Under the pieces are notes generated by a model. The model was not told the origin of the DNA. It made no database searches and saw nothing but the letters and a program-made list of their open reading frames with translations. DNA of 64,000 bases from a virus. Taxonomy: Duplodnaviria > Heunggongvirae > Uroviricota > Caudoviricetes. The stretch lies in IMG/VR virus record IMGVR_UViG_2868597578_000002. One strand, 5' to 3'. The translations under genes and the position numbers were made by a program. Below are positions 28,668-59,244 of the stretch, piece by piece (the first letter of the stretch is position 1; each line of letters begins with the position of its first letter).

Positions 28668-28740
28668 TTAGCTCAGACTAACGACTTCACTTATCAGCCT
28701 CTACGAGGCTTGGGTACACGCGAGCGCAGCTCGCGGTATC
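28668..28740 (+). repeat. Hairpin micro-element cluster A
   Basis: Variants of the CTCAGCCTT and CGGCTTCGCTTGTCAGCCTCTGCGAGGCTT modules followed by GGTACACGCGAGC-GCA-GCTCGCGGTATC|A. Confidence 0.75.
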
Positions 28741-28807
28741 ATATTCTGTACTTTAGCATATTCAGCATATTAAATGTGAAAAATAAAAATTTCACTTAAA
28801 GAAAGGA

Positions 28808-29749
28808 ATGAAAGATATGACTAATATGAAGATGATGAGCAAAGAGGATTTTCTGAAAGTGCTGATGGGTTTGTTGGAAAATCAGGGGATTAAGACAAGC
28901 GTATTCATAATGAAGAAAGAGCATGGAAGTTATACCGGTATCCATAGGGTCTCCGATAATGATGGCGAAACTATCGCAGCAATTGTAAATGTCGATGATT
29001 TATATGATAAATTCATTCATGGAAAAGCAGGTGTGCCAGAAATGGTGGATATCGCAATGGAAGCTATGGATATATTGTCTATGTATCCATCTCAGTCGTC
29101 GCCTGATTCTTTAAAATGGTTATCGGATTGGAGTGTTGTTAAAAACCGGCTGTTTTTATCATTGTGCAATAAAAATGCAGTAGAATACCTAAACTCTGTA
29201 ATTCACAAAGATATTCCCGGAACAGACCTCGCGTTAGTACCGAGGATATTTGCTTTTAATGATGGAGAATCATTTGCAACGTTACCATTAAGTCACAAGA
29301 ACCTGAAATCTTATGGAGTTTCTGAAGAGGAACTGTGGAAGCATGTTGCAGCATCAACGGTAAAACTTCAGCCTGCAAAAATCGATATCGCAGCAGCAAG
29401 ACATGAACAGACAAACGAAATAGACGTAACTAATTCAATTATCAGTATTTCTTCTGGTTTTGGTTCATTTGGTGCAGCTGCTTGTTTCTATGATGGAGTG
29501 TTGGCGGGCATAGAAAATGTAATAAGAGAGAAGTTTTATATATTACCAATGTCATCACGAGGAGTATTAATCCTTCCAGAAAAACTTGTCAATGATGCAG
29601 GATATCTTAGTTTTGATGGCTGCTTAGACATTACAAGTTTTTGCCAGGATACAGCAGTGTATCGTATGCCAAAGTCGCACGAAGATTACCTGACAGATTC
29701 AGCATATTTGTATGATTCTGGCAAGCTTTCAGTCGTTAACACAAAATGA
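28808..29749 (+). CDS. DUF5688-like protein
   Basis: V.VDDLYDKF..., VKNRLFLSLCN....YL..V.HK....DLALV, LKSYGVSEEELW; family recalled from Lachnospiraceae mobile elements. Confidence 0.65.
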   Translation: MKDMTNMKMMSKEDFLKVLMGLLENQGIKTSVFIMKKEHGSYTGIHRVSDNDGETIAAIVNVDDLYDKFIHGKAGVPEMVDIAMEAMDILSMYPSQSSPDSLKWLSDWSVVKNRLFLSLCNKNAVEYLNSVIHKDIPGTDLALVPRIFAFNDGESFATLPLSHKNLKSYGVSEEELWKHVAASTVKLQPAKIDIAAARHEQTNEIDVTNSIISISSGFGSFGAAACFYDGVLAGIENVIREKFYILPMSSRGVLILPEKLVNDAGYLSFDGCLDITSFCQDTAVYRMPKSHEDYLTDSAYLYDSGKLSVVNTK

Positions 29750-29811
29750 TATACATATTAAAAGGACAGTAGCTATTACTGTCCTTTTTTGGTAAGATAA
29801 CTTTATTTTTT

Positions 29812-29968
29812 AACTTCGTGCGAGGGTTCGAATCCCCACACGAAGCACTGCACTCAGCCTTATCGACGGGCGGGAAACCCGCCCTCGTCTGGTACACGCG
29901 AGCATAGCTCGCGGTATCACGGCTTCGCTTGTCAGCCTCTGTGAGGCTTTGTAACAAAGGTGTAAGCC
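29812..29968 (+). repeat. Hairpin micro-element cluster B, with a nested 57-bp unit at 29862-29918
   Basis: CAGCCTT|ATCGAC...GGTATC|ACGGCTT; the empty junction CAGCCTTACGGCTT is present (reverse strand) in cluster D. Confidence 0.8.
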
Positions 29969-30109
29969 TGAGTTATCAAAAAAACACAAAATTTCCATAA
30001 AAAAATCCTCAAAATTTTTCCACTCATTATTTTTTTAAGCATATTAAATTTGTAAGTGAAGAGACGAAAACACTACAAAAAGTTAAATTAAAACCTAAGG
30101 AGAAAAAAG

Positions 30110-56778: not shown

Positions 56779-58617
56779 ATGAGCGAAAAATACAAAAAAG
56801 TATACAAAAATGGAACCACTTATCATATGTCAGAAAGCGGCGTATGCAGGGATATTGATGTGGAAGACTGGGTAGAAGAGGTATCGTTTGGCGAGGATGT
56901 CACTAAGATATGGCTGAGAAAAAACAGCAGAAAAAGATTTGAAAATGTAAAACGAATCCATATCGGAAAGAATGTCTATTCTATAGAAATGCCAAATACT
57001 GTATTTCCAAATGTCCGTGAGGTAACATCAGACAGGGAAAGTTTCCCTGCCGGACGCATGCTGACGGAAAGAACATCTATCGGAAAAATTGACCTTAACA
57101 AGACAACTCTTCTGAACGCTTTTTGCCTAAAACCTGAGGAGCCCTTGGATTTATCAGGAATTTGGGGAATCCGCACTGGGGCTTTGGTAGGCTGTTGCTC
57201 TGAGAAGGTTATTAATAGCGAACAGATTGAAATGGTCAAAAAGTCAGACTTTCTGAATGAATCCAATATCTGTATTGAGGATAGGACAGCAACTTGCGGA
57301 GTAAAAATGGCAGGAAGCATTGTAGTTGATATTAGCGACAGCAAAGATTATGTAATACCTGAAGATGCAACGTTAATCGCAACAGATGTGACGTTTGTGA
57401 CGTTCCCGGCGGGAAGTGTAATTGATGTGCGATGCAGCAATGAATCGTTTTTCCGGGCACAACGCATGAGGTCATATAATAGCTGCAGTCTGTTCTTGAA
57501 TGGAGAAGGTCACTTTGATAAAGAAGAATTTGCATGTCTTCGCAGAAGTCATGTTGAGCTTGGCCTGCAAAATGAGGAATATGTCAAAGTCGGAGATATC
57601 ATATATTCAAAAGATATGACAGAACTGCTCCATTGCGATTATACTTCAACCGGGAACTGCGAAACAGCAGGAAAAGTCCTGATTCCGGATACAGTCAAAA
57701 TAATAGCTGAAAGTGCTTTTGAGTACTGCAGGGGAATTACAGAAATAGTTATTCCTGATTCCGTGGCAGAAGTAGGACGTCATGCTTTCCGTTTCTGCGA
57801 CGGAGTGGAAAAGATGACGCTGGGAAAGCACATCAAACATTTAGGGCATGAATGTTTTGAGTATATGAAATCACTGACTGAACTGGATATTCCGGGCAGT
57901 GTTACACGTGTTGAGCCTATATGTAGTTTTTGTAACGATTTAAAGAATATCAAAATCAACGAAGGAGTACAATCTGTGGATTTCTCAAGGCCGTGGAGCC
58001 AAATACGTCCTGATGTCCTGGAAATACCTTCTACCATCAAGGCGTTTACTAAAAGGAGCCTTATTGGAATACATACCGTTGTGTTGCATACAAATGAAAT
58101 CCCGAAAGATTTACTGGCAGCCATGCATGATTACGAAGCTCCTGCAGCGAATGGTAAATATAAGTATAACTATGCACACGAAAAAGCCATAATAAGTGAA
58201 GTTCTGTGCATAAAAACGCCACGGCGAAGGATTTACATTCCGGCTGAGGCCACAGATAGAAACTTTGACATCATGAACGACTTGTTGAATCGATACGGAG
58301 TGTATGCACCGGCAAACTTCTTCCAGTATTGCAGGACAACACGCCAGAAGCTGCCACTTGCATTCATGGAATGGCAGGATGTACATGAAACGCAAACCCA
58401 GAACTACATAAGAAGAAACCGAAAAAGGTTAATACAGGACCTGATTGAAGAAAATATGGAAGACGGACTAGTTATGGCATTAAAAGATGGAATCTTTCAG
58501 GCAAATGAGATTAAGGATTACTACGACATGATTGAAGATGCCGATATGCAGATTGCAAAGGCGTATGCGCTGGATATGACAGGTGAAAACAGTAAGAAAA
58601 ATGTATTCAGGCTTTAG
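56779..58617 (+). CDS. BspA-type LRR protein
   Basis: GAAAGGA RBS before MSEKYKK; FPNVREVTSD, LLNAFCLKPEEPLDLS, LRR core, C-terminus AYALD...FRL. Confidence 0.88.
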   Translation: MSEKYKKVYKNGTTYHMSESGVCRDIDVEDWVEEVSFGEDVTKIWLRKNSRKRFENVKRIHIGKNVYSIEMPNTVFPNVREVTSDRESFPAGRMLTERTSIGKIDLNKTTLLNAFCLKPEEPLDLSGIWGIRTGALVGCCSEKVINSEQIEMVKKSDFLNESNICIEDRTATCGVKMAGSIVVDISDSKDYVIPEDATLIATDVTFVTFPAGSVIDVRCSNESFFRAQRMRSYNSCSLFLNGEGHFDKEEFACLRRSHVELGLQNEEYVKVGDIIYSKDMTELLHCDYTSTGNCETAGKVLIPDTVKIIAESAFEYCRGITEIVIPDSVAEVGRHAFRFCDGVEKMTLGKHIKHLGHECFEYMKSLTELDIPGSVTRVEPICSFCNDLKNIKINEGVQSVDFSRPWSQIRPDVLEIPSTIKAFTKRSLIGIHTVVLHTNEIPKDLLAAMHDYEAPAANGKYKYNYAHEKAIISEVLCIKTPRRRIYIPAEATDRNFDIMNDLLNRYGVYAPANFFQYCRTTRQKLPLAFMEWQDVHETQTQNYIRRNRKRLIQDLIEENMEDGLVMALKDGIFQANEIKDYYDMIEDADMQIAKAYALDMTGENSKKNVFRL

Positions 58618-58669
58618 AAAAATGAGCACCCGAAAAATAAGGGTGCTCATTTTTTGTGGGCTTTGAGGG

Positions 58670-58780
58670 ATTTTATCAATGAAATCTGGTAACAAGTCCT
58701 GCGAGGCAGGCGAGTTATCATGCGTGCTCTGGGGCCGAATCCGGCAAGGCCGGGGAGGCGTCAACGCGTAGCCCTTGCAC
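58670..58780 (+). repeat. Hairpin micro-element cluster E
   Basis: ATTTTAT/ATGAAAT + CTGGTAAC...GTTATC|A (58670-58719), then CCGGCAAGGCCGGGGAGGCGTC shared with cluster F. Confidence 0.7.
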
Positions 58781-59018
58781 CCCAAATCTGCTTGTCTTTT
58801 TGGTAAATCAGATTTACAGAATGTACATTTTCATCGTCTTCTAGCATATACTCGCAGATATATTCGGCATAAGTTACTGCGTTGGCAATGCATTTCGCGG
58901 AAACCCGGATTGGTTTTTCTCCTGGAAAGAACTGGACATATATAGGAATCATCTTTCCATTTGTACTGAAAGATGCGATAACCGGAAGCGGAGTTAAATT
59001 GGAAATAATTTTGAACAC
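58761..59018 (-). CDS. Small hypothetical protein (PVIASF...G.M.PIY)
   Basis: Protein-like part of the 229-aa ORF; the upstream part is read-through of repeat cluster F; start uncertain. Confidence 0.4.
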   Translation of the reverse strand: MFKIISNLTPLPVIASFSTNGKMIPIYVQFFPGEKPIRVSAKCIANAVTYAEYICEYMLEDDENVHSVNLIYQKDKQIWGARATR

Positions 59019-59061
59019 CCTTTCTTGTTTTTTTACTTCTATTTTACAGAACTTTTGTTCT

Positions 59062-59244
59062 GATGTCAACGGAGAACGAGGAATCCCCGGCCTACCAAAA
59101 GTCGTCTGCGGGTCAAAGGTTCCGGTTTTAACTTCGCACGCGGGTCTGAACTCCAGTTCGTGCACTACACTCAGCCTTGCGGCTTCGCTTGTCAGCCTCT
59201 GCGAGGCTTGATACCGACTCCGGCAAAGCCGGGAAGGCGTCGAT
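59062..59244 (-). repeat. Hairpin micro-element cluster F
   Basis: Minus strand: minimal unit ATCGAC...GTC-GGTATC|A (59210-59244), modules shared with clusters B and D, final end GACATC|A at 59062. Confidence 0.75.

Follow-up and report, generated by a model that had tools for sequence, protein, structure and literature searches.

Repetitive extragenic palindromic (REP) sequences and the bacterial interspersed mosaic elements (BIMEs) are short GC-rich hairpins with a conserved foot and a non-complementary position in the stem, which form clusters of variable composition and cause no target duplication (PMC3333891, PMC8266576, PMC3116915). TnpA-REP (RAYT) needs the hairpin, its conserved foot and the stem mismatch, makes its cuts at relaxed C|T sites to both sides, distant ones included, and has been proposed to generate variable BIMEs and arrays (PMC3333891). 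Gene-less derivatives of the IS200/IS605 family (PATEs), like IS608 and ISDra2 of the same family, have no terminal inverted repeats and cause no target duplication (PMC5027513, PMC3201880, PMC7290912); in IS608 and ISDra2 the active strand has been established to lie on the lagging-strand template, and the family follows this rule in silico (PMC5027513). Here we analyse a family of nesting, hairpin-ended units of 40 to 220 bases in a 64,000-nucleotide stretch of DNA (IMG/VR record IMGVR_UViG_2868597578_000002; hereafter the window). In behaviour the units appear closest to REP/BIME sequences processed by TnpA-REP, and close also to the gene-less IS200/IS605 derivatives. They are probably non-autonomous, REP- or IS200/IS605-like elements whose transposing form is single-stranded DNA (ssDNA), cut by an HUH-type enzyme acting in trans. 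The family falls within the known logic of those elements and is a well-documented variant, not a new principle.

The general build of a unit is a variable leader followed by a terminal hairpin of the form T-GGT(A/G)NN...NN(T/C)ATC-A. The original prediction named seven clusters, and reading the sequence at each place found units at all of them, as described. Compared with the window by BLAST, the seven clusters match one another, the sole other match being the 3' half of tRNA-Asn, and a strict pattern for the terminal hairpin (GGTRCANNYGAGCNNAGCTCRNNGYATCA) occurs three times in the window against 0.00 expected. Minimal units measure 41-46 nucleotides (nt) and consist of an 8-9-nt leader (for example ATGAAATC, ATTTTAATC, TATTTATTC or TGCGTGCTC) and a single hairpin. 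The leader of a 57-58-nt type is a first hairpin, ATCGAC-GGGCGGG-AAA-CCCGCCC-TCGTC; long units carry the hairpins CACTCAGCC-TTAC-GGCTTCGCTTG and AGCCTC-TGC-GAGGCT; and elements of ~140-175 nt begin with a conserved module of ~100 nt (ACGGAGAACGGGGAATCCCCGGCC...GTTCG). For comparison we used two IMG/VR relatives, G001 (137.7 kb, estimated 36% complete) and G002 (59.6 kb; 197 kb in total), together with metagenome contigs from Logan, JGI and ENA (labelled L) and proteins (labelled P). The relatives' replicons are incomplete, and the gene absences reported for them below carry that scope. Two pattern scans and one protein scan of IMG/VR returned only G001 and G002 as true carriers of units, two further matches to a first-hairpin pattern (L014, L015) being chance matches in coding sequence. 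G001 is syntenic with window positions 53.9-63.9 kb at 89-98% identity, and elements with the ~100-nt module number at least 13 in G001 and G002 and one in the window (59069-59242).

An alignment of 37 distinct copies with 10 nt of leader, drawn from the window and its relatives, shows what is kept in the terminal hairpin. Positions T10, G11, G12 and T13 and positions A40, T41, C42 and A43 are invariant or nearly so; the G11-C42 pair and the G12.T41 wobble occur in 37 of 37 copies, and T13-A40 is nearly invariant. Covariation is found at pairs 14-39 (AU in 30 copies, GC in 4) and 15-38 (AU in 18, CG in 17) and at the inner pairs, giving a score of 0.349 against 0.139 for shuffled alignments, none of 500 of which equalled it, and at most 0.197 for slid controls. 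The predicted terminal hairpin, with a kept G-T pair in a covarying stem, is therefore borne out, as is the predicted bulged base, which is retained either as a bulged A (GGTACA type) or as a GA/A internal loop (GGTAAC type). The check proposed with the prediction, a covariance model, here built on leader and hairpin, finds 10 copies in the window (eight on the + strand and two nested copies on the - strand), 25 in G001 and six in G002.

That the units are precise insertions is seen directly in relatives, in which four orthologous pairs of empty and filled alleles differ by 57, 58, 216 and 174 nt. The 58-nt case is cluster D (51163-51220, + strand), a two-hairpin element lodged in a - strand gene for a GIY-YIG (T5orf172) nuclease, behind codon 8. 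The element lies antisense to the gene and parts MAEGYIYV from MTNP...KIGYA, that is, the GIY from the YIG. Homologues of 93-98% identity begin MAEGYIY(I/V)MTNP, with intact proteins of 216 and 217 amino acids (P0001 and P0004), and rule out an intergenic position for the insert. The empty site itself is found in three Logan contigs (L097, L098 and L099), which read ...TATATTTA(TG/CA)T|(G/A)ATGACAAAC... where the window has 58 additional bases.

The 216-nt case, cluster E (56427-56642, + strand), is a composite at the 3' end of a leucine-rich repeat (LRR) gene (54709-56565) and replaces the final 13 codons of its protein. It consists of an outer ATCGAC...GGTATC element whose first hairpin holds two reverse units (56454-56499 and 56541-56586, - strand) and pieces of a reverse long unit. 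Orthologous proteins have 585 amino acids (clusters of 176 and 352 member sequences); P0123 and P0124 end in ...AYILDALSEKEEKSEKLKL, the end predicted by deleting 56427-56642. At the DNA level the tail is empty in G001 and in nine metagenome contigs (L101 and eight from JGI or ENA, to L109), of which eight read GACGCATT|ATCCGAAA at the junction and the diverged L109 reads GACACATT|GTCAGAAA. A further contig, L100, holds a different composite between the same two junctions; this site has therefore been rearranged more than once. The splitting of the nuclease gene and the rewriting of the LRR C-terminus agree with the earlier proposal that the units edit genes.

Nesting is clearest in cluster C (29812-29981, + strand), in which a truncated 5' module with a stretch resembling a tRNA T-arm is followed by a long unit with hairpins AGCC-TTAC-GGCT and AGCCTC-TGT-GAGGCT and a weak terminal hairpin (29940-29981). 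A 57-nt two-hairpin element (ATCGAC...GGTATC; 29862-29918, + strand) is inserted in the loop of the first of these hairpins. The orthologous empty site, CAGCCTT|ACGGCTT, is present in contig L011 as an uninterrupted hairpin beside an identical gene for a DUF5688 protein, and paralogous empty sites are many, including window 59163 and 56510 (- strand) and others in G001 and G002; a search of IMG/VR with the DUF5688 protein found no close relative. Five Logan contigs from several samples, with ends orthologous to window ~29874 (L005-L007, L012 and L013), all stop inside the 57-nt element, at ...ATCGACGGGCGGG, and many Logan contigs have an end within a unit; units therefore fragment short-read assemblies of this replicon. 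The fourth pair concerns cluster G (59069-59242, + strand), a 174-nt element inserted after GATGTCA and made up of the conserved ~100-nt module (ACGGAGAACG...GTTCGTGCA), two hairpins and a terminal hairpin with a mutated last base. It is absent from L102, L103, L106, L107 and G001 and present in L104, L105, L109 and L110. The cluster had been read, from position 59062, as ending in a reversed ATCGAC...GGTATC unit, which comparison with relatives corrects to a mutated forward terminal hairpin (GGCGTCG for GGCGTCA).

These polymorphisms support a family of nesting, non-autonomous, hairpin-ended insertions, which is active or recently active. A lack of empty alleles in relatives, named with the original prediction as what would refute it, is not what the relatives show. 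Three of the four empty sites rebuilt in the original prediction (GIY-YIG, LRR tail and CAGCCTT|ACGGCTT) exist as orthologous empty alleles; the fourth, in tRNA-Asn, stays a candidate. There, cluster A (5125-5184, + strand; 44.4 bits with the covariance model) is a two-hairpin unit with first hairpin AGCCGC-AAA-GCGGCT and terminal hairpin at 5152-5183. It lies inside an anticodon-arm-like hairpin, TCGGCT...AGCCGA, of a decayed duplicate of tRNA-Asn whose 3' 32 nt are 94% identical to tRNA-Asn. ARAGORN called no tRNA after removal of 5126-5183, with marginal calls only at odd boundaries, and from its sequence an insertion into a tRNA-Asn copy is plausible. The decayed copy (~5100-5225) is an extra member of an array of 25 tRNA genes (4371-9067, + strand). 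Cluster B (28668-28741, + strand) is a decayed long-type unit with terminal hairpin GGTACACGCGAGC-GCA-GCTCGCGGTATC followed by A, and is fixed in ten other samples. Its first part (28668-28712) departs from the long-unit consensus mostly by G-to-A changes, and the terminal hairpin is intact.

The remaining cluster, F (58679-58763, + strand), consists of two tandem minimal units (58679-58720 and 58721-58763) between the terminator of an LRR gene (56686-58617) and the stop codon of a small open reading frame (ORF) on the - strand. Its flanks, ...TTTTAT(C/G)A| and |ACGCGTAGCC, are constant; between them 12 relatives show eight haplotypes of this array, ranging from one unit to about a dozen. Two relatives (L102 at 4478-4940 and L110 at 782-1245, orthologous to window 58675) have ~460 nt more between the terminator of the LRR gene and the units, a segment that holds a small - strand ORF and a promoter motif of its own; the hot spot therefore takes up genes too. 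Arrays had been proposed to serve as recombination points between cassettes, and they do behave as hot spots, with an extra gene beside this array in two relatives.

The empty alleles also allowed the boundaries of the element to be placed. Because the GIY-YIG and LRR targets already hold ATC, their boundaries are free to slide by 0-3 nt. Only a slide of 0 or 1 is allowed at CAGCCTT|ACGGCTT; the element is thus either ATCGAC...ATC, placed between Y and A, or TCGAC...ATCA, placed after T-Y-A. The overlap of at most 1 nt (A) given in the original prediction applies only to CAGCCTT|ACGGCTT and is 3 nt (ATC) at the other two sites. Insertion without target-site duplication, also claimed there, is what the four orthologous pairs show, none of which has a duplication, with a remaining boundary ambiguity of 1-3 nt. 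By the TCGAC...ATCA convention, 19 of 20 independent elements are preceded by TTA or TCA and the remaining one by CTA. The 20 comprise five window sites, an event in contig L124 and 14 long elements, 13 of which fit. The background frequency of these trinucleotides is 0.034-0.044, and at a conservative assumed value of 0.055 the probability of such agreement is ~1e-23. As in the IS200/IS605 family, insertion is directly 3' of a short sequence (T-Y-A) that resembles the 3' end of the element (TCA). Since the element's own end is TCA, a resident unit supplies a new target, which explains the head-to-tail arrays; reverse units are seen only as nested inserts in cluster E. Three insertions fell into hairpin loops: AGCC-TT|AC-GGCT, the tRNA-like arm, and CTCGGTAATTCA|ATTGCCGAG in L124. 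In the last, a minimal unit occupies the loop of the right-end hairpin of a TnpB element, whose uninterrupted counterpart is found in a 427-bp element of the window.

Variable content between constant flanks, and the extra gene beside the array in two relatives, could also suggest an integron-like cassette system, in which the arrays would be made of cassettes and the units would be attC-like sites, whose folded strand a tyrosine recombinase would recognise by its extrahelical bases. Like attC sites, the units are imperfect, bulged hairpins that differ between strands; AAC...GTT occurs in the stem of one subtype, and element ends share a 3-nt ATC with two of the targets. The boundaries, however, lie at ATC|A, 3 nt past GTT, and other subtypes do not have AAC/GTT. 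The CAGCCTT|ACGGCTT target has no ATC and shares only the A with the element; there is therefore no core homology. Nearly all the would-be cassettes are gene-free and 40-60 nt long, and they are dispersed at many unrelated T-Y-A sites, some inside genes, rather than at one attI. Moreover, no integrase of the Phage_integrase family (PF00589) was found in the 197 kb of G001 and G002, where the control was positive in 14 of 14 genomes, or among ~50 window ORFs. We regard an integron-like origin as highly improbable.

The two strands of the unit differ in a way that matters for a single-strand mechanism. Folded as DNA, the top strand is paired to its last base, while the bottom strand has 3-5 basal nt open at its 5' end because the G.T pair turns into A.C. 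Orientation is also biased. The window has 39% G+C and a GC skew that is positive nearly throughout, and the outer unit lies on the + strand, the G-rich one, in seven of seven clusters; in the window and G001 together, orientation matches the skew in 20 of 21 clusters. In G001 the - strand carries the units as far as 102 kb and the + strand those from 104.8 kb onwards, with exceptions in 2 of 25 units and 1 of 14 clusters. Both GC skew and gene direction change sign at ~90 kb in G001, likely a replication origin or terminus. With the skew taken as a proxy for replication direction, the hairpin-forming strand would be the lagging-strand template, as in IS200/IS605 elements. The strand asymmetry and orientation bias fit the ssDNA-type mechanism that had been proposed.

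Most copies lie downstream of genes in sense orientation, which would also suit structured-RNA modules (terminators, processing or stabilising hairpins, or a tRNA-like minihelix) spread by recombination between copies rather than as transposable DNA. G.U pairs are normal in RNA, and the 3' part of the ~100-nt module contains the T-arm-like stretch GGTTCGAATCC. At three loci, however (window 51183, G001 16.5 kb and G001 134.4-135.0 kb), the two neighbouring genes run against the skew, which makes these places informative, and the units there are antisense to both genes yet follow the skew. One insertion interrupts a coding frame and a second alters a protein C-terminus, boundaries are exact at unrelated sites that obey the T-Y-A rule, and no Rfam family matches the units. 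The ~100-nt module is conserved in sequence with slight covariation (4 of 27 pairs, covariation term -0.48), too weak to support it as a structured RNA. A secondary RNA effect of the units may exist, but an origin as RNA modules is very improbable.

In the reading that we favour, transposition as ssDNA, an HUH-type single-strand nuclease acting in trans would bind the terminal hairpin on the lagging-strand template and make two cuts, one at the 3' foot of that hairpin (ATC|A or TCA|), the other at a relaxed T-Y-A further upstream. The released strand would then be pasted behind another exposed T-Y-A, in many cases one in the loop of an extruded hairpin or at the TCA with which a resident unit ends. 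A relaxed upstream cut, with pasting at exposed T-Y-A, would explain the nesting, the head-to-tail arrays and the many unit lengths. The REP/BIME model is similar in that one bound hairpin directs relaxed flanking cuts, giving varied unit lengths and amplified arrays. The stem mismatch of REP sequences has its match in the wobble of 37 of 37 copies and in the bulged A or GA/A loop, which by analogy may be an enzyme requirement. The units differ from REP/BIME sequences in their foot, TGGT/ATCA without GTAG, in the context of the cut (T-Y|A rather than C|T), in lying inside genes as well, and in being confined to one family of extrachromosomal replicons. From IS608 and ISDra2 they differ in having only three specific target positions, fewer than those elements. 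Longer types of unit have other, dissimilar hairpins at the 5' end, where the IS200/IS605 family has its 5' subterminal hairpin, and minimal units have only the 8-9-nt leader.

Of the two enzyme classes named in the original prediction, an HUH-type nuclease is the one that we infer; a tyrosine enzyme is disfavoured, as is the integron option, since 197 kb of relatives gave no tyrosine recombinase. These relatives also gave no match to a reverse transcriptase or to a Y2 transposase (PF04986), though for the latter the control gave no signal in any genome, so that this negative carries no weight; of the marks of IS91/Helitron-type rolling-circle elements, a Y2 HUH Rep or transposase and a 3' hairpin a few nt before the end, a 3' hairpin is present. 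The replicon family is rich in IS605-family genes, with seven TnpB-like matches in 197 kb, five of them above the family cut-off, and one Y1 TnpA. The latter (Y1_Tnp, 117 bits) lies in G001 in an IS605-type element, divergent from a 598-amino-acid ORF. The window itself has a gene-less IS200/IS605-type element in two copies of 97-98% identity (18550-18980, inside a CRISPR array, and 7695-8074), with a promoter motif and a structured 3' part ending in GGTTCAC. Its right-end hairpin, CTCGGTGATTCAATTGCCGAG, is the uninterrupted form of the site invaded by a minimal unit in L124.

Several observations weigh against transposition by a REP- or IS200/IS605-type enzyme. No Y1 transposase was detected in the 64-kb window by Pfam on ~50 ORFs, by tblastn with the TnpA of G001 or by PHROGs on ten small ORFs of unknown function, which matched no PHROGs family. 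The prediction had suggested looking for a co-occurring RAYT, TnpA, relaxase or integrase. In these incomplete replicons no RAYT flanked by units was seen; the arrangement of a REPtron (a single-copy RAYT flanked by its repeats) is seen neither in the window nor in G001, and the single Y1_Tnp of G001 belongs to an IS605-type element with unrelated end hairpins and is not flanked by units. Hairpins of the resident IS605-type elements do not match those of the units: the right end in G001 has the hairpin GATTTCTG...CAGAAATC and the terminus GGTTCAC, and the 427-bp gene-less element of the window has hairpins unlike the units and a TCAC end. Whereas BIMEs and REPINs are inverted pairs, the units are arranged in direct tandem. 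A minimal unit has a single hairpin against the two subterminal ones of IS200/IS605 elements and is far smaller (41-57 nt). The cut site lies within the foot of the stem, whereas IS608 is cut some nt beyond its hairpin. Under the IS608 guide rule, by which guide positions 1, 2 and 4 pair with site positions 2, 1 and 4 (PMC3201880), only the ATCT leader fits, predicting ATNA, which agrees with ATCA; TTCT, CTCT and GTCT leaders predict other cleavage sites while the end of the unit stays (A/G)TCA, in the registers tried, which were not exhaustive. Finally, orientations in G002 are mixed, with three of six agreeing with the skew, and at most loci gene direction confounds the orientation bias.

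Among the window's genes a single HUH-related single-strand nuclease was found, a MobV-type relaxase (Mob_Pre; PF01076, 66.8 bits; 61378-62487, - strand), 99% identical to a copy in G001 and a candidate for the trans-acting enzyme. A perfect palindrome, TCTGGTAA-CAA-TTACCAGA (62552-62570, - strand), lies 65 nt upstream of this gene, directly after the promoter-like sequence CCATATTA. Taken with its flank, the palindrome has 12 nt (ATCTGGTAACAA) in common with the unit at 58683-58694, and CTGGTAAC is found only in the relaxase palindrome and in two units. The invariant TGGT...ATCA of the units is the palindrome core with one C-to-T change, hence the G.T wobble. Upstream of mob, TGGTA...TACCA is kept in five relaxase lineages of 55-99% identity, and two further lineages (56% and 46%) have other palindromes at that position. 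Judged by sequence, the palindrome is a candidate for a cognate inverted repeat that the units may mimic, and the units could be mimics of the replicon's transfer-origin hairpin, cut and rejoined not by a transposase but by the MobV relaxase, which is HUH-related and uses a His nucleophile. On ssDNA this enzyme would bind the TGGTA...TA(T/C)CA stem and then transfer strands between unit ends and T-Y-A sites in reactions of the initiation and termination type. Origins of the MOBV (pMV158) type are likewise hairpins recognised on ssDNA by an HUH-related enzyme, and the base of the unit stem is the relaxase palindrome but for one base change.

We nevertheless consider this explanation unlikely. 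The match to the palindrome was noticed post hoc, and the palindrome may be an operator rather than a transfer origin. The pMV158 relaxase MobM nicks 8 nt past its hairpin, at GTGTG|TT, and the units match neither that position nor that sequence, their boundary being ATC|A. Parsing the unit as a hairpin with an 8-nt tail ending in ATC, like the IR1+8 substrate of MobM, was rejected because singleton inserts end exactly at the foot of the hairpin. A transfer-strand rule predicts one orientation, whereas unit orientation flips with the GC skew in G001, and three palindrome-bearing relatives (L128, L130 and L132, ~28 kb together) showed no units. Origin mimics, moreover, mobilise whole plasmids and are not known as 40-nt elements that insert into genes. 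That the units are parasites or by-products of conjugation, as miniature copies of an origin hairpin cut and pasted by the MobV relaxase on ssDNA, is by our estimate decidedly unlikely; if true, they would be relaxase-driven mini-transposons able to disrupt genes and build arrays.

Although the window is recorded as viral, we treat it as part of a large extrachromosomal replicon, plasmid- or phage-like, of gut Firmicutes. An identity as a jumbo phage, suggested by the 25 tRNAs and by the listing of its relatives as viral in IMG/VR, is the less likely one, gene content pointing to a plasmid-like replicon: there is a MobV relaxase, a PcfJ-like protein, RecD2 and a type I CRISPR-Cas system, and no virion genes were seen among the ~50 window ORFs scanned. 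Other genes include those for thymidylate synthase, a RecD2-like helicase, PARG/macro, ADP-ribosylglycohydrolase and Fic proteins. Public assemblies hold exact copies of window proteins in ~100 blocks, mainly short contigs. The Hodor megaplasmids (PMC12934698) are a different type of replicon (MOBH, type I-C), and their description makes no mention of hairpins or relevant repeats. The CRISPR-Cas locus (13703-22486) contains a Cse1-like gene (13703-15457), Cas3 (19492-21945) and two arrays (18460-19465 and 22090-22486) with a 29-nt repeat (GTCTGCCCCTCGCAGGAGGGGATGAATC) and a period of ~61 nt; just upstream of the cas genes is a full-length match to the skipping-rope RNA motif (RF02924; 13493-13573, - strand; 69.5 bits against a gathering score of 36.7). 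A promoter-like motif, TTCAGCATATTAAAT (core GCATATTR), recurs before most operons (for example at 27373, 28761, 30038 and 62990), CCATATTA being the version of the relaxase gene. An ORF at 44088-46148 has seven tandem repeats of 237-240 nt that encode DUF4379 treble-clef zinc-finger domains. BspA-type LRR paralogues number at least five (within 54709-61307, 24090-25886 and 31474-32622), three of ~620-640 amino acids being in tandem, and clusters E, F and G are placed at the borders of such genes.

Beyond this replicon family the units are not in evidence. The strict pattern had no match in 185,579 species-representative GTDB genomes, and 60 single matches to a loose pattern in species genomes were taken as chance because they fell in unrelated taxa and folded weakly. 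PLSDB plasmids and INPHARED phages gave no match to units; Rfam gave nothing at the clusters at gathering thresholds, nor at E-value thresholds in 58600-59300, the one cluster region so scanned; and no published description of the unit family was found in the searchable literature. The description of the family as new to these collections and papers therefore holds.

In conclusion, we describe a family of minimal hairpin elements that, if our reading as transposing ssDNA is true, would, at 41-57 nt and one hairpin, rank with the smallest mobile DNA elements for which empty and filled alleles are documented directly. The invariant hairpin and T-Y-A target offer a simple substrate for finding a single-strand nuclease of new specificity, and the possible link to the relaxase is directly testable with oligonucleotides. 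The large extrachromosomal replicons that carry the units, the only ones known to do so, form a very common family in gut Firmicutes; there the units break a nuclease gene, rewrite the tail of a surface-type LRR protein, invade transposon RNA scaffolds and a tRNA-like gene, and build hypervariable arrays.

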